Positions 1 through 46,395 of a DNA stretch of 64,000 nt are shown one piece after another (position 1 is the stretch's first letter; every line of letters starts with the position of its first letter). Position numbers and translations under genes: made by a program. The notes beneath the pieces were generated by a model. That model was not told the origin of the DNA. It did no database searches and saw only the letters and a list, made by a program, of their open reading frames with translations. The stretch is from Nitrospirota bacterium (lineage in GTDB: Bacteria; Nitrospirota; Nitrospiria; Nitrospirales; NS-4). The stretch lies in the NCBI GenBank assembly GCA_005877815.1, contig VBOG01000028.1:4803-68802 (forward strand). The letters run 5' to 3'.

Positions 1-143
1 CGAGAGGATTCAGGAAAGGCGTCATCGTTCTGCGCAAGATGATCCGCCCGCTCAAGTCCATCTTGAAGAGTTCCGCCTTCAGCGGGCGCACACACCATCG
101 CGAGGGCGATCAGACAACTTAGACCGTTGATCAGGCCGCGCAT
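1..143 (-). CDS. 5' end of an exported-protein gene that runs off the left edge
   Basis: ATG at 143 on the minus strand. My translation MRGLINGLSCLIALAMVCAPAEGGTLQDGLERADHLAQNDDAFPESS stays open to base 1 and has a signal-peptide-like N-terminus. There is no clear SD. Confidence 0.3.
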   Translation of the reverse strand, partial: MRGLINGLSCLIALAMVCAPAEGGTLQDGLERADHLAQNDDAFPESS

Positions 144-162
144 TCAAGACCCGCTGGTTGAA

Positions 163-34004: not shown

Positions 34005-34664
34005 CTAGGCCGACCCATTGCCGCCGTGCCGGGCGAGCAGCGTCATGATGGTCGGCGAATGGCTCGTTTGCGGCGCTTCGTCCTGAATACGCTGGTAGAT
34101 GATCCTCAGGCGATGCGCGTCATTCTTCAGACGGCTCGAGCGATTGACGATCTTCGGAATCGTCTTTTTCTTTGTCGCCGTCTTTCCCGCATCCTGCGCG
34201 ATTTCGAGAAAGCGCACCACTTCTTCCCACGCGATATACCCCGTCTTGCGGCTGTCGGTCCGCTCCGAGTGCTTGAAGAACGGAGCGACATTCCAGACAA
34301 TCTGCTGCAAAGGGCTCAGCCGGCCACGCGAGCGGGAGAGACTCAGCACCTGTTTCGACCGCGAGGAGAGACGCTCGGCCACAAAGTTTTGCAGGACGCG
34401 GCAGGTGTTCCGGGAAAGCAAAAACTGCTGGCACATTAATTTTAACCGCTTGAGCCGTCTCTGGTTGATCTCATACGCCGCATCGGCGATAGAGGACTTG
34501 GTGGTCGGCGGTATTAGGGTCGCCTGTGGAGGGCTCCCCGCGGCCAGTTCCCGTAACTGGGCCATCCGTTTTTCTGCGGGCAACCGGTCCATGGCTCTGA
34601 GAATCTTCTCAAGTTCCATGAACACATTTTCCCGGCGCGTCTCTTCAGTTTGTTTGGCCAGCAT
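34005..34664 (-). CDS. hypothetical 219-aa protein, last gene of the arg/lys/dap string
   Basis: ATG 34664 lies 41 nt after the dapB stop. The track start 34766 overlaps dapB. No family recognised. Confidence 0.45.
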   Translation of the reverse strand: MLAKQTEETRRENVFMELEKILRAMDRLPAEKRMAQLRELAAGSPPQATLIPPTTKSSIADAAYEINQRRLKRLKLMCQQFLLSRNTCRVLQNFVAERLSSRSKQVLSLSRSRGRLSPLQQIVWNVAPFFKHSERTDSRKTGYIAWEEVVRFLEIAQDAGKTATKKKTIPKIVNRSSRLKNDAHRLRIIYQRIQDEAPQTSHSPTIMTLLARHGGNGSA

Positions 34665-34705
34665 CGCATGCTCCTTAAAAGAGGAATGTATCCCCCCATG
34701 AATAA

Positions 34706-35548
34706 TTATTTCAGCCCTAGCACATCTTGCATGTCGTACAGCCCTGGAGACTGCTTCACCACCCACGCGGCGGCGCGCAGCGCGCCGCGCGCGAAGGTAT
34801 CGCGGCTGGTCGCGCGGTGCGTGACTTCAATGCGTTCTCCCATCCCGCCGAACAGAACCGTATGGTCGCCGACAATGTCGCCGGCGCGAATGACCTGCAT
34901 CCCGATTTCTCCCTGTTTCCGCTCGCCGACGATCCCCTTGCGCCCGTAGGTCGCCACCGAGTCGAAGTCCTTTCCGGTGGCTTCCGCCAGCACCTTGGCG
35001 AGCTTCAGCGCCGTGCCGCTCGGCGCGTCTTTCTTCAGCCGGTGATGGGCCTCGGTGACTTCGATATCGTAATCATCTTTGAAGGTCCGGGCCATCTCCG
35101 CGACAACTTTGAGGAGCACATTGACGCCGACACTCATGTTCGGAGAAAAGACGCACGGAACGCTCCGGGCGATGGTGACCAGTTCGGCAAGTTGCGGCGT
35201 GGAGAGGCCGGTGGTGCCGATGACCATTGCCTTGCGATGCAGGGCCATGGCGTGCAGGTTCGCCAGCACCGCCTCCGGAGCGGTGAAATCTATGAGCACA
35301 TCGGCCGCACCCGCGATGGCGGTCACATCATCGCTCAGCGAGATTCCGAGCCTCGCGCAGCCTGCCAGTTCTCCGACGTCCTGCCCAATAGCGTCATGCC
35401 CCTTCCTCTCGACGGCGCCTGTCAGCTGAAACGTTTTCGATTCATCGATGAGGCTGATCAGACGCGCGCCCATGCGGCCGGCAGCTCCGGCCACAATGAC
35501 CTTGATCGCTTTAGACTCTTTATTTTGATGCCGTGCCACCAACGCCAT
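34706..35548 (-). CDS. dapB: 4-hydroxy-tetrahydrodipicolinate reductase
   Basis: N-terminal IKVIVAGAAGRMG, then EAHHRLKKDAPSGTA. Confidence 0.9.
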   Translation of the reverse strand: MALVARHQNKESKAIKVIVAGAAGRMGARLISLIDESKTFQLTGAVERKGHDAIGQDVGELAGCARLGISLSDDVTAIAGAADVLIDFTAPEAVLANLHAMALHRKAMVIGTTGLSTPQLAELVTIARSVPCVFSPNMSVGVNVLLKVVAEMARTFKDDYDIEVTEAHHRLKKDAPSGTALKLAKVLAEATGKDFDSVATYGRKGIVGERKQGEIGMQVIRAGDIVGDHTVLFGGMGERIEVTHRATSRDTFARGALRAAAWVVKQSPGLYDMQDVLGLK

Positions 35549-37401: not shown

Positions 37402-38667
37402 TCACTCAAGAAATGCCGGAATCGTTTCCCCGCGCACGAGATCGTCGTAGTTCTCGCGGGCCCGGACCACATGGAACTCCTTCTCACTGACCAGGACTTC
37501 CGGGACGCGGGGCCGTGAATTATAGTTGGAAGCCATGCTGAAACCATAGGCCCCGGCGCTCATGACAGCGAGCAACTCGCCTGGATCCACCAACGGCATC
37601 ATCCGGTCCTTGGCCAGAAAATCGCCCGATTCACAGATCGGGCCTACGACATCCGCCAGGACGTGCTTTCTGAATTTGTCCCGCATCTCCCGCACCGGCT
37701 TGATCTCATGATACGCCCCATAGAGGGACGGCCTGATCAGGTCGTTCATGGCGGCATCCACGATGATGAAGGTCTTGTCGGGATTGGCCTTGTGATAGAG
37801 CACCTTGGTCATTAACACCCCCGCATTGCCGACGATGGAGCGTCCAGGCTCAAATAGCAGGGTACATTTCAGATCTTTGACCAGCGGGGCGAGGGCCTGA
37901 GACAGGTCCTCTGGTTGCGGAGGCGTCTCGTCCTGATAGGTGATGCCAAGGCCGCCACCCACATTGAGATAGCGGATTTCGACCCTGATCTCCTTGAGCT
38001 GTTCGATCAATTCGAGCATTTTCCGCAGGGCTTCCACGTATGGACTCAGCTGTGTCAATTGGGAGCCGATGTGTTTGTGGACGCCCACAATCTCGATATG
38101 ACGCAGCGTGGACGCGAGCTTGAACTCTTCGAGCGCGCGCTCAGCGCTGATGCCGAACTTGCTCTTCTTGAGACCCGTCGAGATGTAGGGATGGGTCTTC
38201 GGATCAATGTCCGGGTTGATGCGCAGCGCCACGCGGGCTTTCGTTTTGAGGTCACCAGCGACACGATCGATCGCGCGAAGCTCCGCCGACGACTCCACGT
38301 TGAACATGAGGATTCCGGTCTGCAGCGCGTAGCGAATCTCATCATCCGTCTTGCCGACTCCCGCAAACACGATCCGTTGCGGTTCGATGCCGGCCTTCAG
38401 CGCTCGGTACAGTTCCCCGCCAGAGACGATGTCGCCGCCGGCGCCTTCCTTGGCCAGGACCCGCAGAATGGCGAGATTGGAGTTCGCCTTGATTGCATAG
38501 GCCATGATATGGGGGACATCTTTGAACGCCGAGTCGAAGGCTCGGTACTGCCGAATGACACGGGCGCGGCTGTACACATAGCAGGGCGTACCGACCGCTT
38601 CGGCGATCTTCCGAAACGGCACGTCCTCGCAGTAGAATTCGCCGTCCTGGTAGCGGAAATCAGGCAT
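37402..38667 (-). CDS. lysA: diaminopimelate decarboxylase
   Basis: Alanine-racemase-fold PLP decarboxylase (YAIKAN, GGGLGI, CESGD). ATG 38667 overlaps the upstream gene's stop by 8 nt. Confidence 0.9.
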   Translation of the reverse strand: MPDFRYQDGEFYCEDVPFRKIAEAVGTPCYVYSRARVIRQYRAFDSAFKDVPHIMAYAIKANSNLAILRVLAKEGAGGDIVSGGELYRALKAGIEPQRIVFAGVGKTDDEIRYALQTGILMFNVESSAELRAIDRVAGDLKTKARVALRINPDIDPKTHPYISTGLKKSKFGISAERALEEFKLASTLRHIEIVGVHKHIGSQLTQLSPYVEALRKMLELIEQLKEIRVEIRYLNVGGGLGITYQDETPPQPEDLSQALAPLVKDLKCTLLFEPGRSIVGNAGVLMTKVLYHKANPDKTFIIVDAAMNDLIRPSLYGAYHEIKPVREMRDKFRKHVLADVVGPICESGDFLAKDRMMPLVDPGELLAVMSAGAYGFSMASNYNSRPRVPEVLVSEKEFHVVRARENYDDLVRGETIPAFLE

Positions 38668-40531
38668 TCTGCAGTTCCTCTTCCACAAGGTCCGCGTGAA
38701 AGTTCTGCCCGCTCAAGGTATTGCCGAACGTTTCGCTCAGTTTCTGATACCGCACGCGCACCGACGGCGCCGCCTTCTTAAAGAACTCCCCGTCAAGCAA
38801 CGTATGCAGCGCCTGCGGGGTCGCATGGCGCAGGTGCTCGAAGTTCAGGATGATGTCCACTTTGGCTTGGTTCGCAGCAGCGGCAATACGGGTCTTCAGC
38901 TCCGCGGCATTCAAGTGATCGAGCGCGCCTTCAAGCTCGACCATGAGCGCCGTGAGCTTCTCGTGCTTGCGCGTCTTAATGCTGAGGAACTGGTCCACCT
39001 GTCCGGACATCTTCTTGAGCGTCAGGAGTGCGTTCGGAACCGGGTTTTCCATCCGGACCGACGGCAGCTTGGCCTGCAGCGTTTTAATCACCGAGGCGAC
39101 TGGAGTCAGCTCGCCTTTCGGACAGGCCCGGCGGATCACCCGCCGAAACTCCCAATTCATCACGAACCGTGGCACCAACCGCTGGCTGGTATGGGCCAGC
39201 CGCCGGTAAATGTTCGGCAAGGAATAGAAGTGATGCTGCGCCCAGTAGAACCCGTTCTGAAGCTGATCGGCCGTCATGCGGGTCGGCGTGAACGTGACGT
39301 GTTTCCCGTCGTAATGGGACCAGTCGCGGTCGAAAATCCGCCCCCCCGCTTCGTACCGGGCGTGCAGCGGAGTGCCGGGAAGCGGCGTCAGCACGTTGAA
39401 GTAGGCAAGCTCGCAGTGATTGCGAATGAGGAACTCGACCGTCCGCTCGAACACCGATTCGTCGTCGTTGTCGAATCCGAACACGATGCCGGGATTCACC
39501 ATGATCCCATATTTGTGAAACATCTGGATCTCTTCTTCGAACTTCTTCACCTTGTTGAAGGGCTTGTGCGTTTCGCCGAGGCTTTCCTCGAAAATGGACT
39601 CCATGCCGACGAAGACCGACACGCAGCCGCTCTCGGCCGCCAACTTGACCATCTCCTCGTCGTCGCCCAGGAACAACGTGCTCTGGCAGCCCCACTTGAT
39701 GTTGAGCGGCTTGAGCGCGGCCCAGAGTTCACGGCAGTAGGCGCGATTGCTGTTGTGCAGGTCATCCACGAATGCGAAGATCCCGCCATCCTCCACACCA
39801 AACCTGATTTTGGCCGCAATCTTGACCGCTTCAAGCATCGAACCGCGCCCGATCCGCCCCACCAGTTCGTCGCAGACGAAACCTTTGACGCGTTTGATCT
39901 CGGCTATCACCTCTGAAACCGGGCGACGCCGCGTGCTTTTGCCGTTGAAGGGAGAGACGCTGCAGAACTCGCAATCGAAGTGGCACCCGCGGGTCGTGAA
40001 GGTACATTCGCGGGTCATATACGCGTCGTTGGCCAACAAGTCCACCCTCGGGTTCTTGAAATTCTCAAGCGACGGGAAACTCTCCATCTTGTAATGACGC
40101 TGCATCTGGCCCTTTTCAAAGTCTGCGATCACCCGAGGCCAGGAGTCTTCAGCTTCCCCCGTCACGATCGCATCCGCGTGCTGCAACGCCTCGTCAGCGC
40201 AGTACGTCGGATGCACGCCGCCCAGGACAACCTTCACGCCACGCTTGCGAAATTCCGCGGCCAGCTCATAGGCCCGCGGGGCGTAACAGATCATGATCGA
40301 AATACCGACAAGATCGGCGGGATAATCCAGATCGATGTCTCGGACCGCCTCGTCCTGGATTTCGATGTCCCAGTTTTCCGGGGTGTACGCGGCAATCACC
40401 GGAAGACTCAGCTTGGGGAACCAGATCGCTTTCCGCTCGCTCGAGCTCAGATGATACGGGTTGTTCCGCGGATAGGGATCCAGCAGCAATAATTTTCTTC
40501 GCTTCTGCTGCGAGAGTCGCACAAGCTGCAT
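38660..40531 (-). CDS. B12-binding-domain radical SAM enzyme with STAS-like C-terminal tail
   Basis: 623 aa. N-terminal cobalamin-binding-like Rossmann domain, CxxxCxxC motif CHFDCEFC at 39962-39985, and a C-terminal 113 aa (38663-39001) that resemble an anti-sigma-antagonist/STAS pattern. Confidence 0.85.
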   Translation of the reverse strand: MQLVRLSQQKRRKLLLLDPYPRNNPYHLSSSERKAIWFPKLSLPVIAAYTPENWDIEIQDEAVRDIDLDYPADLVGISIMICYAPRAYELAAEFRKRGVKVVLGGVHPTYCADEALQHADAIVTGEAEDSWPRVIADFEKGQMQRHYKMESFPSLENFKNPRVDLLANDAYMTRECTFTTRGCHFDCEFCSVSPFNGKSTRRRPVSEVIAEIKRVKGFVCDELVGRIGRGSMLEAVKIAAKIRFGVEDGGIFAFVDDLHNSNRAYCRELWAALKPLNIKWGCQSTLFLGDDEEMVKLAAESGCVSVFVGMESIFEESLGETHKPFNKVKKFEEEIQMFHKYGIMVNPGIVFGFDNDDESVFERTVEFLIRNHCELAYFNVLTPLPGTPLHARYEAGGRIFDRDWSHYDGKHVTFTPTRMTADQLQNGFYWAQHHFYSLPNIYRRLAHTSQRLVPRFVMNWEFRRVIRRACPKGELTPVASVIKTLQAKLPSVRMENPVPNALLTLKKMSGQVDQFLSIKTRKHEKLTALMVELEGALDHLNAAELKTRIAAAANQAKVDIILNFEHLRHATPQALHTLLDGEFFKKAAPSVRVRYQKLSETFGNTLSGQNFHADLVEEELQNA

Positions 40532-40593: not shown

Positions 40594-40746
40594 TCATTTT
40601 TTATCCGACTGCGCGGGCGCATTTTCGGGAGGCACCGGATTTCCTTTCTTTCCGCAACCCAGAGGACCGACGAGAAAGATTCCCACCGTAAGACATCCGA
40701 CCAGTGCTGTCATCATCAAGCGATCGCCCTTCAGATGTCTGTTCAT
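40594..40746 (-). CDS. 50-aa LptM/YifL-like micro-lipoprotein (not in ORF track)
   Basis: My translation gives [50 protein letters not shown]. The ATG overlaps the argH stop (ATGA). The CG-KKG-P pattern after the Cys and the position upstream of lysA/dapF fit the family. The lipobox is imperfect. Confidence 0.45.
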   Translation of the reverse strand: MNRHLKGDRLMMTALVGCLTVGIFLVGPLGCGKKGNPVPPENAPAQSDKK

Positions 40747-42146
40747 GCTTCGGCCCGCAATTCTCTTTCCAATACCTTGAGTCGCGCCACAACGCGCGTT
40801 CGCGCAGTCCCTCCAATTTGGGATTTTCGCTCGAGCGCGCCTTCCACCGTCAACATATCCAGCGCATCCTTTTCAAAAGCCTTGGAGAACGTGCGTAATT
40901 CCTCCAGCGTGATGCCCATCAGGTCTTCGCCTTGATCCAATCGTGCGCGCACGAGCCGTCCCACGATCGCGTGGGCCGTACGGAAGGCGACGCCTTTCAA
41001 CACTAGATAATCGGCCAGTTCTGTGGCCAGCATGAATCCCGACGCCGCGGCTCGGGCTAGCTCCTCTCGGCGAACGGTCATCTCAGCCACGATCACTGCA
41101 AGCAGTTCCAGGGAGTCAGATGCCGTATCAATCGCGTCGAAAAGCGGCTCCTTATCTTCCTGCAAATCGCGATTGTAACTCAAGGGCAACCCCTTGAGAA
41201 GAGTGAGCACGGCCATCAAATGACCGTAGACGCGCCCCGTCTTTCCCCTGATCAACTCAGGGACGTCGGGATTCTTCTTCTGCGGCATCATACTGCTGCC
41301 GGTACAGACCGAATCCGGAAGGTCCACGAAACCGAACTCCTGGGACGACCACAGGACCAGTTCCTCGGCAAACCGCGAGGCGTGCATCATGACCAGCGAC
41401 AACGCCGATAGTGTCTCCACGACGAAATCGCGGTCGGACACCGTATCGAGACTATTGGCGCTGACCATCGGGAAGTTCAGTAAGCGCGCCGTATATTCGC
41501 GGTCTACGGGATAGTTCGTGCCTGCCAAAGCCCCTGCGCCAAGCGGCAGGACATTGATGCGTCGCAGCGCGTCACGGAGCCGTCCTTTGTCGCGCTCGGC
41601 CATCTCGACATACGCGAGCAGGTGGTGCGCAAAAAGGACCGGCTGGGCCCGCTGCAGATGCGTATACCCTGGCATCACCGTTCCGGCTTCGCGGCGGGCC
41701 AGGCTGACGAGGCTCAGTTCCCACTGCCGCAGAAGCCCAAGCAGTTCGACGACCGCTTCGCGCAGGTACAACCTGAGATCGAGAACGACCTGATCGTTGC
41801 GGCTCCGCCCGGTGTGCAGCTTCCCGCCGACCTCTCCGACCAGTTCTGTTAAGCGCGCTTCAATTGCCATGTGAATGTCTTCATATTCTGGCCGGAACTT
41901 GAATCGTCCGCCACGGATTTCCGCCTCCACCTGCTGAAGCCCTGTGATCAGCTTCGAGGTCTCTTTCGCGCTCAAGACGCCGGCGCGCTGGAGTGCCCGG
42001 CAATGGGCCATACTACCGGCGATGTCATGCCGATACAGCCGGCGGTCGATCGCGACCGAAGAGGTAAAGGCCTCCACGCGGGGATCCGTCCCGGCCTTAA
42101 AGCGGCCGGCCCATGGCTTTTTGGGAACGATCTTGCGCACCGTCAT
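40743..42146 (-). CDS. argH: argininosuccinate lyase
   Basis: 467 aa of the fumarate-lyase family, with signature [12 protein letters not shown]. Confidence 0.95.
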
Positions 42147-43375
42147 CCCCGCCCTATGCCCTTGGTCTTCGTGCGGGCCGCCCTGATCGCCAGGCGCAGT
42201 CCATTGAGACGGATAAAGCCTTCCGCGTCCTTCTGCCGATAGACGTCATCCTCCTCGAAGGTCGCCATATCGAGACGGTACAGCGACCGCGGCGACCGGC
42301 GGCCGACAACACTGCAGGAGCCCTTGTAGAGCTTGAGGCGCGCCGTACCGGTGACGTCCCGTTGCGCCTCGTCCATCGCAGCCTGAAGCATTTCGCGCTC
42401 CGGGGCGTTCCAATATCCGTAGTAAATCATCTCGGCGTACCGCGGGATGAGAGACTCGCGCAGGTGCAGAACCTCCCGGTCGAGCGTGAGCGATTCCACC
42501 GCCCGGTGCGCGACATGCAGTATCGTCCCGCCGGGCGTCTCGTACACCCCGCGTGATTTCATGCCCACATAGCGATTTTCGACCAGATCCACCCGTCCCA
42601 CTCCGTGGGCTCCGCCCACATCATTGAGATGCGACAGCAAGGCAGCCGGCGACAACAGCTTGCCGTTGACCGCTACTGGATCGCCCTGTTCGTAATCAAT
42701 TTCGAGGTAGACAGGTTTTGCCGGAGCCTTGTCGGGGGAGACGGTCATTTGAAAAATTTCCTCCGGCGCCTCCTCCCATGGGTCCTCCAGAATGCCCCCC
42801 TCATAGCTCACATGGAAGTGATTGCGGTCCGTGCTGTAAGGCTTGTCCTTCGTCGCCGTCACGGGGATGCCATGGCGCTTGGCATATTCGATGAGATCGC
42901 GCCGGGAACGAAAGGTCCATTCCCGCCACGGGGCAATGATCTTGATCGAAGGATTCAGGGCCAGATACGTCAACTCGAACCGCATCTGATCGTTGCCCTT
43001 GCCCGTGGCTCCGTGTGCGACGGCGTCGGTCCCTTCCCGTTCGGCGATTTCAATCTGGCGACGGGCGATCAGCGGCCGAGCGATGGAAGTGCCGAGCAGA
43101 TACGTACCTTCGTAGACGACATTGGCGCGAAGCATCGGGAAAATATAGTCGCGGACGAAGGTTTCGCGAAGGTCCTCGATGTACACCTTACTGGCGCCCA
43201 TTTTCATCGCCTTGGCCTTCACGGCCCTCATGTCCTCACCTTGACCGAGGTCGGCACAGAACGCGATCACCTGGTAGCCGAGGGTCTCGCGCATCCACTT
43301 TAGGATGACGGAGGTGTCGAGGCCGCCGGAATACGCCAGCACAACTTTTTTGACGGGAGCGTCTCCGTGGGACAT
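42143..43375 (-). CDS. argG: argininosuccinate synthase
   Basis: 410 aa with AYSGGLDTS and GATGKGNDQ. Confidence 0.95.
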
Positions 43376-43379
43376 GGGG

Positions 43380-44315
43380 TCAGCGATCCTTCAGAAGCCG
43401 GATAAGAATGGCCTTCTGCACATGCAGCCGATTTTCAGCCTGATCGAGGATCACGGAGTGAGGGCCATCCAGGACAGCGGTCGTGATTTCCTGCCCACGA
43501 TGGGCCGGCAAGCAATGCATGACGATGGCATCGGGTTTGGCGGAGGCCAATAGCCGCTCATTCAACTGATAGGGATTCAACACCTTGACTCGTCGTGCCT
43601 GTTCTTTCTCCTGCCCCATGCTGGTCCAGACATCTGTATACAAGACGTCGGCACCTTTTACCGCCACAAACGGGTCGCGGAGAATCTCAATCGCGGCGCC
43701 GGTCCGATGCGCGCGTTCACGCGCCCAGTCCACAATTGAGGCATCCGGTTCATAGCCCGAGGGACAGGCGACGCTGATGGCCATCCCCATGATCGCCGCG
43801 CCCTCGAGAAGCGAATTCGCCACGTTGTTGCCGTCCCCCACGTAGGCGATCTTGACGCCTTTCAGCCACCGCTTTTTCTCACGCACCGTGAACAGATCCG
43901 CCAGGACCTGACAGGGATGGTGAAGATCGGTCAGTCCATTAATCACAGGGATCGTCGCGTTTCGGGCCCATTCTTCAACGGTATGATGCTCGTAGGAGCG
44001 TATGACCAATCCGTCGAGGTAGCGGGACAGCACCTTCGCCGTATCCGAAATGCTTTCCCCGCGGCGCATTTGAATGTCGCTGACTGAAAGAAACAACGAT
44101 TGACCGCCGAGTTGGTTCATCCCCGTTTCGAACGACACACGGGTACGCGTCGATGGCTTTTCGAAGAACAGACCAAGCGTTTTCCCGCTCAGTCTCTGCG
44201 TCGGGAGGGCGCGCCGGCGCATGGCCTTCAACTGGGCCGCTTCCCGAAAGATCGACTGCATCACCTCGCGCGAAAGATCGTGGACCGTCAATAGATGGGT
44301 CTGGTGCGGGGTCAT
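43380..44315 (-). CDS. argF: ornithine carbamoyltransferase
   Basis: 311 aa with the [13 protein letters not shown] and DVWTSMG motifs. Confidence 0.95.
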
Positions 44316-45508
44316 CGGCTCGCCTGAATCACGTCACCGAGCGTAGCGACGACCCGATCTATCTCAGACTGGCTCACGATAAGCGGGGGGACAAAACGCA
44401 GGACACGATCACTTGTCGCATTCGCCAGCACACCGCGCTTACGAAGACCCTCCACCAATTCCCGTGCATCGCAGGAAACCTCGATGCCGATCAACAGTCC
44501 CATCCCGCGAATCTCCTTGATGGTCGGACATCCGCCTTGAAGATCTTCAAGCGATTTTCGGAAGTGCTCACCCATCCGGGCGCAGTGTCCAAGGATATCC
44601 TGGTCCTCCAGGATGACCTCCAGCACCGCCACTGCCGCCGCGCAGGCTAACGGGTTGCCTCCGAACGTGGATGCATGGCTGCCCGGCACAAATACTTTCG
44701 CCACAGCATCGGTAGCAAGACAGGCGCCGATCGCGACCCCGCCGCCCAATCCTTTGGCTAGCGTCATGACGTCGGGCGCGAGGCCGAAGTGCTCATAGGC
44801 GAAGAGCCGGCCCGTACGGCCAATGCCGGTCTGGACTTCATCGAACATGAGCAGCGCGCCGCGTTCCGAACAAATGTCCCGACAGGCCTTGAGATAACCC
44901 TGCGTCGCAACCCATACCCCGCCCTCACCTTGGACGGGTTCTAGAAGCACCGCCGCTGTTTTCGTCGTCACGGCCTGACTGAGTGCCTCCACATCATTGA
45001 ACGGAACGTACCGGAACCCCTCCGGCAATGGTTCATACCCTTTTTGCACCTTGTCCTGACCGGTCGCCGTCAGCGTGGCAAGCGTCCGGCCGTGAAAAGA
45101 ATTCACCATGGAGACAATTTCAAACCGTCCCGCTCCATCACGCTCATGCGCCCAACGACGCGCGAGCTTGATCGCCGCCTCGTTAGCTTCGGCGCCGCTA
45201 TTGCAAAAGAACACTTTGTCGGCAAACGAATGGTCAACGAGCACACGAGCCAGGCTTATTTGTGGCTCTGTGTAGAACAAATTCGACGCATGCAACAAGC
45301 TCTGCGCCTGCTTCTGGATCGCGAGAGTCACTTTGGGATGGCAATGCCCAAGCGCGTTAACAGCGATACCCGCGAGAAAATCGAGGTATTCCCGGCCTTC
45401 CATGTCATAGACGCGAGTGCCGTGCCCACGGGAAATTCCGACAGGGTACCGGGTATAGGTGTTCATCAAGTACTGGCGGGCGCCTTGTACCAGTTCTTCG
45501 GTCAGCAT
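44312..45508 (-). CDS. argD: acetylornithine aminotransferase
   Basis: 398-aa class III aminotransferase (FDEVQTGIGRTG, LAKGLGGG). First gene of the arg string. Confidence 0.9.
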   Translation of the reverse strand: MLTEELVQGARQYLMNTYTRYPVGISRGHGTRVYDMEGREYLDFLAGIAVNALGHCHPKVTLAIQKQAQSLLHASNLFYTEPQISLARVLVDHSFADKVFFCNSGAEANEAAIKLARRWAHERDGAGRFEIVSMVNSFHGRTLATLTATGQDKVQKGYEPLPEGFRYVPFNDVEALSQAVTTKTAAVLLEPVQGEGGVWVATQGYLKACRDICSERGALLMFDEVQTGIGRTGRLFAYEHFGLAPDVMTLAKGLGGGVAIGACLATDAVAKVFVPGSHASTFGGNPLACAAAVAVLEVILEDQDILGHCARMGEHFRKSLEDLQGGCPTIKEIRGMGLLIGIEVSCDARELVEGLRKRGVLANATSDRVLRFVPPLIVSQSEIDRVVATLGDVIQASR

Positions 45509-45671: not shown

Positions 45672-45995
45672 CTACTTGAATGCTTCCTTGAGCAGGGGCT
45701 CAATCTCTCCCTTTTTCTCCATCGGATCAAGGATGTCCGTATCGCCATAGAACTTTCCATTGATGAACACCTTCGGTAACGTGGGCCAGTTGGTCATTTT
45801 GGTCAGGGCTTCTCGTTTGGCCGGGTTCGGAAGGGCGTCGATCAATTCATAGGGATAGCCATATTTGTCGAAGAACTGCATCGTTTCCCTGGTGAATCCG
45901 CACATAGGCGCTGCTTTGGTCCCCTTACCATAAATTAAAATTTTATGGGTTTTAATTTCTCGCTCGATCTCCTCAATGATCGGATCTGCCGCCAT
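45672..45995 (-). CDS. grxD: monothiol glutaredoxin (Grx4 family)
   Basis: 107 aa with CGFT active site, WPTLPKVFINGKFYGDTDI. Confidence 0.85.
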   Translation of the reverse strand: MAADPIIEEIEREIKTHKILIYGKGTKAAPMCGFTRETMQFFDKYGYPYELIDALPNPAKREALTKMTNWPTLPKVFINGKFYGDTDILDPMEKKGEIEPLLKEAFK

Positions 45996-46319: not shown

Positions 46320-46395
46320 TGGTGGAGGGTAGGGGATTTGAACCCCCGACCCCGACGTTGCGAACGTCGTGCTCTCCCAGCTGAGCTAACCCCCC
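46320..46395 (-). tRNA. tRNA-Ala (anticodon CGC), CCA encoded
   Basis: Cloverleaf folded by hand: acceptor GGGGGGT/ACCCTCC with G3:U70, D-arm GCTC/GAGC, anticodon stem CGACG/CGTCG with loop TTCGCAA, and T-arm GGGGG-TTCAAAT-CCCCT. Confidence 0.9.

Follow-up and report, generated by a model that had tools for sequence, protein, structure and literature searches.

B12-dependent radical SAM enzymes catalyse some of the hardest reactions in biology, and substrates are known for only a few dozen of them. The best match to the protein described here, by sequence (E 4e-8) as well as by fold (Foldseek E 2e-20, TM 0.74 on target), is AprD4 (PDB 6fd2), a radical SAM 1,2-diol dehydratase. In both proteins a B12-like Rossmann domain at the N-terminus is followed by a radical SAM barrel and, towards the C-terminus, by a helical region, but they are only 17% identical, and AprD4 lacks a STAS domain and comes from an aminoglycoside biosynthetic cluster. 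Despite its B12-like domain, AprD4 is not known to use cobalamin. The same order of B12-binding domain and radical SAM core is found in MgmA (9ccb), TsrM, TokK, CysS and OxsB, and in the BchE, HpnJ, HpnR and PhpK models, and none of these cobalamin-dependent enzymes carries a STAS domain.

The STAS domain is normally a switchable protein-binding module. SpoIIAA, RsbV and RsbS are free proteins of ~110 aa, whereas in YchM/DauA (STAS-ACP structure 3ny7) and the SLC26 family STAS is a fused or accessory, non-phosphorylated protein-binding module whose partner is a transporter. MlaB is likewise a STAS protein that acts as a non-phosphorylated docking module. Here we describe a gene of Nitrospirota in which a STAS domain is fused to a radical SAM enzyme, and in which it would work in the non-phosphorylated mode of YchM and SLC26; its fold matches SpoIIAA more closely than these. 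The gene lies in the window, that is, the whole stretch of 64,000 nucleotides that was analysed.

Domain organization of the fusion protein

The encoded protein is identical to NCBI TLY38002.1, for which the record name reads only 'radical SAM protein', and its reading frame is preceded by a Shine-Dalgarno-like GGTGAGGTG. The sequence-only reading had divided it into a cobalamin-binding-type domain, a radical SAM core and a 113-aa tail (residues 511-623; 38663-39001), of which it quoted residues 526-579. The reading frame, the CHFDCEFC motif and the tail coordinates all proved accurate, and this three-part architecture was right, with a DUF4070-like region additionally recognized between core and tail (Table 1). 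The AlphaFold model of the full-length protein has a pLDDT of 84.7 and a pTM of 0.85.

Table 1. Positions of the radical SAM-STAS gene, its parts and its neighbours in the window
Feature	Position	Strand	Basis and remarks
argH	40743..42146	-	Upstream cluster member; Pfam domains in orthologous clusters
Small LptM-like lipoprotein gene	40594..40746	-	50 aa; lipobox, motif ...LGCGKKGNPVPPE; overlaps argH stop by 4 nt
Radical SAM-STAS gene, whole ORF	38660..40531	-	623 aa, ATG start
N-terminal Rossmann-type B12-binding-like domain	40082..40498	-	Residues ~12-150; PF02310; conserved GGVHPT motif
Radical SAM core	39332..40009	-	Residues ~175-400; PF04055 and Foldseek
CX3CX2C cluster motif CHFDCEFC	39962..39985	-	Residues 183-190; C183, C187, C190
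Lineage-specific helical insertion in the core	39779..39877	-	Residues 219-251
DUF4070-like C-terminal helical region	39077..39331	-	Residues 401-485; PF13282 sub-threshold; helices 421-485 in model
Linker with conserved IPNAL motif	38993..39076	-	Residues 486-513; alignment; pLDDT drops at ~500-513
STAS (SpoIIAA-like) domain	38714..38992	-	Residues 514-606; strand-strand-helix-strand-helix-strand-helix
T571-P572 codons	38816..38821	-	N-cap and first residue of STAS helix 2
Disordered C-terminal end and stop codon	38660..38713	-	Residues 607-623; pLDDT <50; contains lysA start
GAGGA, Shine-Dalgarno-like sequence	38676-38680	-	Inside the 3' end of the radical SAM gene
8-nt overlap ATGCCTGA	38660..38667	-	lysA start codon 38665-38667; radical SAM stop codon 38660-38662
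lysA (diaminopimelate decarboxylase)	37402..38667	-	ORF; orthologues with Orn_DAP_Arg_deC Pfam domains; synteny

Both catalytic domains exceed their Pfam gathering cut-offs, with 48.8 bits against 29.5 for Radical_SAM (PF04055) and 43.7 bits against 32.1 for B12-binding (PF02310). In Foldseek searches the radical SAM barrel matched many radical SAM structures at probability 1.00, and the top matches of the full-length model were AprD4, MgmA, TsrM, CysS, TokK and OxsB; the N-terminal domain, in which strands and helices alternate, matched AprD4, MgmA, TsrM, TokK and OxsB. The three cysteines of the CX3CX2C motif are invariant in 45 sequences spanning all clades of the family. C303 is the only other invariant cysteine, so nothing points to an auxiliary Fe-S cluster. 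We rejected assignment as a MiaB/RimO-like methylthiotransferase, for which fold matches exist but the second-cluster cysteines are not conserved. Cobalamin is the most likely, though putative, cofactor, with the reservation that AprD4, the best structural match, has this type of domain too. The helical insertion, modelled as helices 205-229 and 232-243, is only 20% identical to other clades and is absent from P0122, P0123 and P0126.

None of the characterized B12-type radical SAM equivalogs in NCBIfam (BchE, HpnJ, HpnR, PhpK, MgmA/TIGR04014, AprD4, ApyD, BzaD and others) covers the protein. Its top matches, TIGR04013 (83.6 bits against a cut-off of 251), BchE (72.5 against 481), HpnJ (61 against 578) and PhpK, all lie far below threshold, as does AprD4 (39 against 500), and the same holds for its relatives.

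The tail is a STAS domain. In the window protein PF01740 scores just below its cut-off (21.8 bits against 22.6, E 1.7e-4; residues 522-579, profile positions 6-62 of 106) and TIGR00377 reaches 20-24 bits against 53, while several members of the STAS clade have precomputed PF01740 or PF13466 matches. A profile built from the family's tails matched SpoIIAA (1auz/1th8) at E 4e-6, with a G.LDH..A..L motif common to both. The tail modelled alone by AlphaFold (pLDDT 80) matched SpoIIAA (1tid_B) at E 3.8e-6 and a TM-score of 0.67 over 114 columns, with further matches to TM1442, RsbV and RsbS. The STAS domains of SLC26 and YchM matched less well (E 0.004-0.03; 3ny7 at E 0.016). An ordinary radical SAM extension of the DUF4070 type is ruled out as the identity of the tail, since the PF13282 match (20 bits against 22; residues 387-454, profile positions 1-67 of 144) lies N-terminal to it and the tail alone matches no Pfam models other than STAS. 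The tail is conserved both inside the family and between clades, where it retains 36% identity (the catalytic domains retain ~50%) and an invariant G535; the last residues (607-623) fall to 10%.

The earlier reading had likened the tail to anti-sigma-factor antagonists. The fold bears this out, but the canonical phospho-serine is missing. In the HMMER alignment, T571 is paired with D57 of SpoIIAA and P572 with the phospho-acceptor S58; position 571 is Thr or Ser in 43 of the 45 sequences and position 572 is Pro in 37, and the DSSG motif is absent. Helix 2 of the modelled domain begins at residue 572. No gene for an anti-sigma kinase or PP2C phosphatase was found among ten of the larger ORFs that lie between ~28.3 and ~53.6 kb in the window (~15 kb around the gene), or in 12 sampled contexts of family members.

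Phylogeny and gene neighbourhoods

In a neighbour-joining tree of 191 catalytic-core sequences, midpoint-rooted and without support values, all 49 STAS-bearing proteins formed one clade. None of 141 tail-less relatives fell inside it, and the one member without a tail is a partial sequence that has been truncated. The STAS domain was apparently gained once by this B12-type radical SAM lineage, which now includes members from Nitrospirota, NC10, Thermodesulfobacteriota, Deltaproteobacteria, KSB3 and metagenome-assembled Alpha- and Gammaproteobacteria. Tail-less relatives of ~440 aa from Atribacterota, Moorellales (including Thermanaeromonas toyohensis) and Acidobacteria share 38-45% identity over the Rossmann domain, the radical SAM core and the helical region, but have neither the STAS domain nor the 219-251 insertion; they are equally uncharacterized. 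Among the closest tail-less relatives, P0139 joins the core to a PLD/cardiolipin-synthase domain and P0245 joins it to an MMPL transporter. A literature search on radical SAM or cobalamin enzymes with STAS or anti-sigma-antagonist domains, and on radical SAM proteins of Nitrospira moscoviensis, returned no description of such a fusion. The sequence-only reading had known of no such fusion among characterized B12-type enzymes; the fusion proteins make up a coherent, previously uncharacterized subfamily within a known enzyme class.

One 720-aa entry carrying a LysA Pfam domain (P0104) appeared to be a natural fusion of the radical SAM protein to LysA. Its radical SAM part runs at residue 537 directly into LysA residue 8 at a common 'DGEF', and most of the STAS domain is missing. 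The entry comes from a catalogue that records no contig for it, and we therefore take it to be a probable chimera of assembly.

Nearly all Nitrospirales carry the fusion gene, in single copy. It belongs to a conserved cluster with the order argD-argF-argG-argH-lipoprotein-rSAM-lysA-dapF-dapA-dapB, and the arrangement argG-argH-lipoprotein-rSAM-lysA was present in 78 of the 80 species loci from this order. The 8-nt overlap with the lysA start, noted earlier for the window alone, occurred in every lysA-carrying Nitrospirales locus (78/78; 77/77 in a stricter re-count), irrespective of whether the radical SAM stop codon was TGA, TAA or TAG. Other junctions of the same cluster vary from -4 to +867 nt, leaving this as the sole invariant one. 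In addition, an AGGA is kept 10-13 nt upstream of the lysA ATG in most loci. These sequence features give good support for translational coupling of lysA to the radical SAM gene in Nitrospirales. Three deeper Nitrospirota-type clades (40-50% identity) keep the order argH-lipoprotein-rSAM-lysA with gaps of 43-134 nt and no overlap. The gene had been described as inserted between the lipoprotein gene and lysA, but a recent insertion is ruled out by its native composition, with a G+C content equal to that of adjoining genes, and by an arrangement that is ancient in the phylum. Scanned against Rfam, the whole window yielded a single tRNA and no lysine riboswitch, and promoter and terminator scans gave chance-level results.

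A lipoprotein gene stands between argH and the radical SAM gene in nearly all Nitrospirota loci, and its lipobox and CGKKGNPVPPE motif are conserved. In LptM itself the lipobox precedes a motif of the CG.KGPL type. Pfam does not confirm an LptM identity for the window lipoprotein, which has no match at E <= 0.01; its counterpart in locus L089 matches PF13627 weakly (E 0.05). In L089 the radical SAM gene follows argH and the lipoprotein gene, and lysA does not adjoin it.

Linkage to lysA and dap genes extends throughout Nitrospirota. In the 12 sampled contexts, which include Nitrospirota, neighbourhoods outside this phylum were heterogeneous, unrelated and mostly housekeeping. Genes of the lys, dap or arg pathways do not adjoin the members from KSB3, Proteobacteria, Thermodesulfobacteriota and Deltaproteobacteria, and the Nitrospirales paralogues L020 and L061 are located elsewhere. 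Clades beyond Nitrospirota also lack the lipoprotein gene upstream. The L061 paralogue lies directly 3' of an MlaC gene.

Proposed function and its alternatives

We favour, with a probability of roughly 55%, the reading that these proteins form an uncharacterized B12-type (class-B-like) radical SAM subfamily which acts on a general substrate, carries a SpoIIAA-like STAS domain that works without phosphorylation, and is translationally coupled to lysA in Nitrospirales. The intact CX3CX2C motif would hold a [4Fe-4S]/SAM cluster and the enzyme would generate a 5'-deoxyadenosyl radical and, most likely with the help of cobalamin, would methylate an unactivated carbon or alter it in some other way. 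Its substrate would be a common cellular compound, a pathway-specific metabolite being less likely. The STAS domain would serve as a protein-docking or regulatory module that binds a partner or gates the enzyme, presumably not through the classical serine switch, because the acceptor position is Pro. Ribosomes finishing the radical SAM gene would go on to translate lysA by termination-reinitiation; the two proteins would therefore be co-produced, which does not by itself prove a common pathway. Cluster membership also says little about pathway, because the Nitrospirota cluster includes the lipoprotein, folK and panC. Two features qualify this reading. The depth of the lysA adjacency and the invariant overlap could mean a functional tie to LysA, which would run counter to a general substrate, and the conserved Thr/Ser one residue before the canonical phospho-site leaves some chance of phosphorylation-based regulation.

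The sequence-only reading suggested a part in the metabolism of lysine, diaminopimelate (DAP) or arginine, or in its regulation, such as the methylation or rearrangement of an intermediate or a peptidoglycan precursor. In this type of reading the enzyme might also modify or bind LysA, with the STAS domain as docking module. The linkage behind this proposal holds within the phylum: the argH-lysA position is kept in 78 of 80 Nitrospirales loci and in the three deeper clades, and an invariant junction with lysA and with no other gene is what selection for LysA co-production would be expected to leave. The step from linkage to pathway is weak, however, since members of the same STAS clade in KSB3, Proteobacteria, Thermodesulfobacteriota and Deltaproteobacteria have unrelated neighbours, L089 has no adjoining lysA, both paralogues lie elsewhere, and the cluster itself contains genes as unrelated as those for the lipoprotein, an aminotransferase, folK and panC. 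We regard this alternative as rather improbable, and any part in the chemistry of lysine, DAP or arginine as speculation. A still less probable, more specific version takes the coupling to reflect a physical or enzymatic partnership: the STAS domain would dock onto LysA or a different protein of the DAP pathway, and the core would modify that protein, its substrate or its product, for instance by C-methylation of a residue, DAP or lysine.

An alternative in which the enzyme is paired with the LptM-like lipoprotein, not with lysA, and modifies a membrane lipid or envelope component, its STAS domain acting like MlaB or like the ACP-binding domain of YchM, strikes us as quite unlikely. Lipoprotein-rSAM adjacency is found in all Nitrospirota arg/lys contexts and also in L089 without lysA, and the fusions to PLD/cardiolipin-synthase and MMPL domains, the MlaC gene beside L061 and the 3ny7 fold match (E 0.016) would all fit. 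These items are anecdotal, however: other clades lack the upstream lipoprotein gene, the two fusions occur in relatives of ~40% identity beyond the STAS clade, and the tail is far closer to SpoIIAA-type proteins than to transporter-type STAS domains.

There is a similarly slim chance that the tail is a true anti-sigma antagonist phosphorylated on Thr/Ser571 by an RsbW/SpoIIAB-type kinase, so that a stress cascade switches the enzyme on and off or the state of the enzyme is relayed to a sigma factor: SpoIIAA, RsbV and RsbS are indeed the best sequence and fold matches, with the common G.LDH..A..L motif, and a hydroxyl residue sits at the helix 2 N-cap in 43 of 45 sequences, but helix capping alone would also account for that residue, it aligns with D57 next to a proline at the S58 position, DSSG is missing, and neither a GHKL anti-sigma kinase nor a PP2C gene was found within ~15 kb in the window or in the sampled contexts.

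Implications for Nitrospirales and the enzyme class

Taken together, these comparisons define a widespread and coherent subfamily of radical SAM enzymes whose STAS fusion partner is not known from any characterized member of the class. If the STAS domain controls or targets the radical enzyme, this would be a new mode of regulation for these enzymes. In addition, the invariant 8-nt overlap offers a clean natural case for selection on translational coupling.

In soils, waters and wastewater plants, the Nitrospirales are the main nitrite oxidizers and comammox bacteria. The gene is near-universal in this order, and because it is hard-wired to lysA expression there, its product probably belongs to their core physiology. 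Should the partnership with LysA or a different protein of the DAP pathway be real, the enzyme would be the first radical SAM enzyme to be targeted by STAS, and would link a hitherto unrecognized step to lysine biosynthesis in nitrite-oxidizing Nitrospira.

The radical SAM gene and its protein

Re-examination of the open reading frame, its tail and its overlap with lysA bore out all of the coordinates in the sequence-only reading. The radical SAM (rSAM) gene is a real ORF that starts with ATG, is preceded by a Shine-Dalgarno-like GGTGAGGTG and has the same G+C content as its neighbours, with which it forms a same-strand run. The exact database match of its product is NCBI TLY38002.1, named there just 'radical SAM protein'.

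Genes of the same-strand run and segments of the AlphaFold model of the rSAM protein
Feature	Position	Strand	Remark
argD	44312-45508	minus	same-strand run
argF	43380-44315	minus	same-strand run
argG	42143-43375	minus	same-strand run
argH	40743-42146	minus	same-strand run
lipoprotein ORF	40594-40746	minus	50 aa; between argH and rSAM gene
rSAM gene	38660-40531	minus	623 aa; between lipoprotein ORF and lysA
lysA	37402-38667	minus	directly 3' of rSAM gene
dapF, dapA, dapB		minus	after lysA; end of listed run
Rossmann domain	residues about 12-150		model
rSAM barrel incl. helical hairpin	hairpin residues 205-243		model
helical region	residues 421-485		model
linker			model; between helical region and STAS domain
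strand-strand-helix-strand-helix-strand-helix domain	residues 515-606		model
disordered end	residues 607-623		model

Pfam placed a B12-binding domain at residues 53-132 (43.7 bits) and a Radical_SAM domain at residues 179-368 (48.8 bits), both above cut-off, together with a sub-threshold match to DUF4070 (residues 387-454) and a STAS match that fell just short (residues 522-579, 21.8 bits versus 22.6). No NCBIfam equivalog came near its cut-off, the best scores being 83.6 bits versus 251 for TIGR04013, 72 versus 481 for BchE and 61 versus 578 for HpnJ. An AlphaFold model built on 45 diverse homologues was confident (mean pLDDT 84.7, pTM 0.85). AprD4 was the top match of the whole protein, both in fold (E 2e-20) and in sequence among solved structures, and further best fold matches were MgmA, TsrM, CysS, TokK and OxsB. 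The radical SAM site is intact and a B12-type domain is present. Since the only cysteines invariant across all clades are C183, C187, C190 and C303, the protein is predicted to lack a second Fe-S cluster.

Elsewhere in this region, a putative 253-aa ORF (34005-34766, minus strand) directly 3' of dapB is overlapped by a long opposite-strand ORF and gave zero Pfam matches at E <= 1e-4. Just 5' of argD, a 107-aa ORF with a CGF motif (45672-45995, minus strand) by eye resembles a monothiol glutaredoxin and is a candidate for one. The sole Rfam match in the 64-kb window is a tRNA gene (46323-46395, minus strand), and G+C falls to 0.52 in the region of these two features.

The STAS domain and the origin of the fusion

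The STAS-like nature of the tail (residues 511-623), proposed from the sequence alone, was upheld by three independent lines of evidence, which agree that the tail is a complete STAS fold. When the tail was scanned by itself, STAS-type models were the sole Pfam and NCBIfam matches. A profile of 16 tails matched the SpoIIAA structures 1auz and 1th8 (E about 4e-6), with which it has the motif L.G.LDH..A..L in common, and P0123, a distant family member, spans nearly the whole TIGR00377 model (positions 9-105 of 108). Finally, an AlphaFold model of the isolated tail (pLDDT 80) matched SpoIIAA 1tid_B with E 3.8e-6 and TM 0.67 over 114 columns; TM1442, RsbV and RsbS also matched, and transporter STAS domains matched more weakly than these four. 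Because HMMER places the tail motif NFEHLRHATPQAL on NLEDLSFMDSSGL of SpoIIAA, Thr/Ser571, kept in 43/45 sequences, aligns with D57, and the position of the acceptor S58 is proline in 37/45. In the model, helix 2 of the domain begins at P572 and is capped by T571. As aligned, the domain is predicted not to be a canonical phospho-switch. Between the window protein and other clades, identity is 48-51% in the catalytic domains, 36% in the STAS domain and 10% in the last 17 residues.

Over 100 clusters of Nitrospirota MAG proteins share 66-100% identity; all are about 625 aa long, and some carry the automatic JGI label 'YgiQ / anti-anti-sigma regulatory factor'. When 1.8 billion representatives were searched exhaustively, the matches extended into the tail in only four other clusters at the 50%-identity level. 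Beyond these lay a very large group of relatives that have no tail, are about 440 aa long and about 40% identical, and are missing residues 219-251 as well. Using distant tailed members as queries, we found further proteins with the STAS tail, 562-601 aa in length, in other Nitrospirota, NC10, Thermodesulfobacteriota, Deltaproteobacteria, candidate division KSB3 and alpha- and gammaproteobacterial MAGs. In a neighbour-joining tree built from the catalytic core alone (191 sequences, no support values), all 49 STAS-bearing proteins formed one clade that contained none of the 141 tail-less relatives, its sole tail-less protein being a truncated 'partial' entry. This tree is therefore consistent with a single origin of the fusion.

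Some Nitrospirales carry extra, non-syntenic STAS-tailed copies at 64-65% identity. One (locus L020, 6001-7911) is flanked by genes for a Crp-like regulator and a BrkB/YihY-family protein; another (L061, about 797-2719) lies directly 3' of an MlaC gene, and its MAG holds a syntenic copy too (L067). In a 720-aa database protein, P0104 (source 'src'), the rSAM sequence up to residue 537 runs straight into LysA from residue 8 at a common 'DGEF'; this is probably a chimera produced in assembly and not a natural rSAM-LysA fusion.

The lysA junction and gene neighbourhoods

We compared 80 species-representative loci, all from Nitrospirales or Nitrospiraceae and including cultured Nitrospira moscoviensis. 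lysA lies directly 3' of the rSAM gene in 78/80, within a cluster argG-argH-...-rSAM-lysA-(dapF)-dapA-dapB, and the two exceptions are additional copies at other sites. The 8-nt overlap reported for the window (ATGCCTGA, 38660-38667) was found again there and in every locus of this set with lysA next to the gene: in 78/78, the first 8 nt of lysA are also the last 8 nt of the rSAM gene, stop codon included. This overlap reads ATGC[CA]T[GA][AG], and the stop codon alternates between TGA, TAA and TAG. As a control, we measured the spacing at other gene junctions in the cluster, which drifts (argG to argH, -4 to +143 nt; dapF to dapA, -4 to +109 nt; lysA to the next gene, +1 to +867 nt), whereas the rSAM-lysA spacing is fixed at -8 nt (77/77 in a stricter re-count). 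Because the compared loci contain no nonsense mutation in the disordered last 17 rSAM codons, any of which would destroy the overlap, we infer that selection maintains termination-reinitiation coupling from the rSAM gene to lysA.

Within the Nitrospirales clade alone, the C-terminal peptide EE(E/D).Q(D/N)A is conserved (window 38660-38713, minus strand). In the form EED.Q[DN]A it is coded by GAGGAy...CAnGATGCnTGA, a stretch that holds AGGA 10-13 nt 5' of the lysA ATG as well as the ATG itself. Since these codons carry the Shine-Dalgarno-like AGGA and start codon of lysA, conservation of the disordered end probably reflects constraint at the nucleotide rather than the protein level. dapF is retained in the cluster of the window and its closer relatives and is absent from it in many Nitrospiraceae loci (L017, L019, L021, L023, L027, L031 and others); in N. 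moscoviensis, which has no dapF in the cluster, dapA directly follows lysA.

The synteny is phylum-deep in Nitrospirota. The order argD-argF-argG-argH-lipoprotein-rSAM-lysA-dapF-dapA-dapB-aminotransferase-folK(-panC) is retained in three deeper clades of Nitrospirota type, which are 40-50% identical; there lysA follows after a gap of 43-134 nt, with no overlap. At locus L089, argH is followed by a larger LptM-like/fn3 lipoprotein, the rSAM gene and dnaA, and lysA does not adjoin.

The sampled contexts outside Nitrospirota have nothing in common with this arrangement. KSB3-type loci place the gene divergent from truB-rpsO-pnp; one locus places it beside surA-like genes and an NfnAB-like pair, another near rpsL-rpsG-fusA, again with such a pair, and a further one after moaC. 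The gene for a Thermanaeromonas tail-less relative stands alone. In the proteobacterial clade the gene follows a sigma-54 two-component system. The conserved operon there (L081, 7001-15749; L091, 2680-11425) comprises, in order, the sigma-54 activator, the rSAM-STAS gene, and genes for a 617-aa protein without a Pfam match, a BcrAD_BadFG + DUF2229 protein of about 1176-1178 aa, a protein of 93 aa and another radical SAM protein, this one bearing a Zn_ribbon_HMPTM domain. The NfnAB-like pair (NAD_binding_1/DHODB_Fe-S_bind and Fer4_20/Pyr_redox_2) adjoins the rSAM-STAS gene at the unrelated loci L092 (4654-6904) and L093 (9540-11788) and could be its electron-supply partner.

Possible roles of the fusion enzyme

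The enzyme would generate a 5'-deoxyadenosyl radical and is likely to use cobalamin, its STAS domain may serve as a docking or regulatory module without the classical phospho-serine, and LysA synthesis would be coupled to translation of the rSAM gene. We favour a general cellular substrate, because the clade is coherent and yet, outside Nitrospirota, its members lie beside unrelated genes, most of them with housekeeping functions. These neighbours weigh against a lysine-pathway intermediate as the substrate, but this remains a live rival because conservation beside lysA is exceptional.

Hints of a lipid or envelope role are anecdotal. Between argH and the rSAM gene, a small lipoprotein is conserved in L001-L080, L085-L087 and L090 as well as in the window; it has a lipobox, and its motif CG(K/T/V)xG.P(I/V)(P/A)PE(D/N) resembles the one at the N-terminus of LptM. 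The window lipoprotein has zero Pfam matches and its fn3-containing L089 counterpart a weak one, at E 0.05 only. lptM-like genes are reported to be virtually absent outside Proteobacteria (PMC10567701). Two of the nearest relatives without the tail, at 38-40% identity, have the B12-rSAM core joined to another domain: P0139 (671 aa) to a PLD/cardiolipin-synthase-like domain and P0245 (1210 aa) to an MMPL/RND transporter. These fusions suggest that some branches of the wider clade have roles related to lipids. In addition, MlaC adjoins the L061 paralogue. Two observations weaken the case for true partner-switching by the STAS domain: the acceptor position holds a proline, and kinase or phosphatase genes were found neither among ten of the larger ORFs scanned between about 28.3 and 53.6 kb of the window nor in the 12 sampled contexts.

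Automated COG labels had already recognised both halves of the fusion, and no radical SAM-STAS fusion was present among curated models, solved structures or the papers found by literature search. Among B12-type radical SAM enzymes, the proteins thus make up a widespread, uncharacterised subfamily that bears a domain of regulatory type. The fusion would be of greater interest should its STAS domain turn out to target or switch the enzyme, or should a link to LysA be established.
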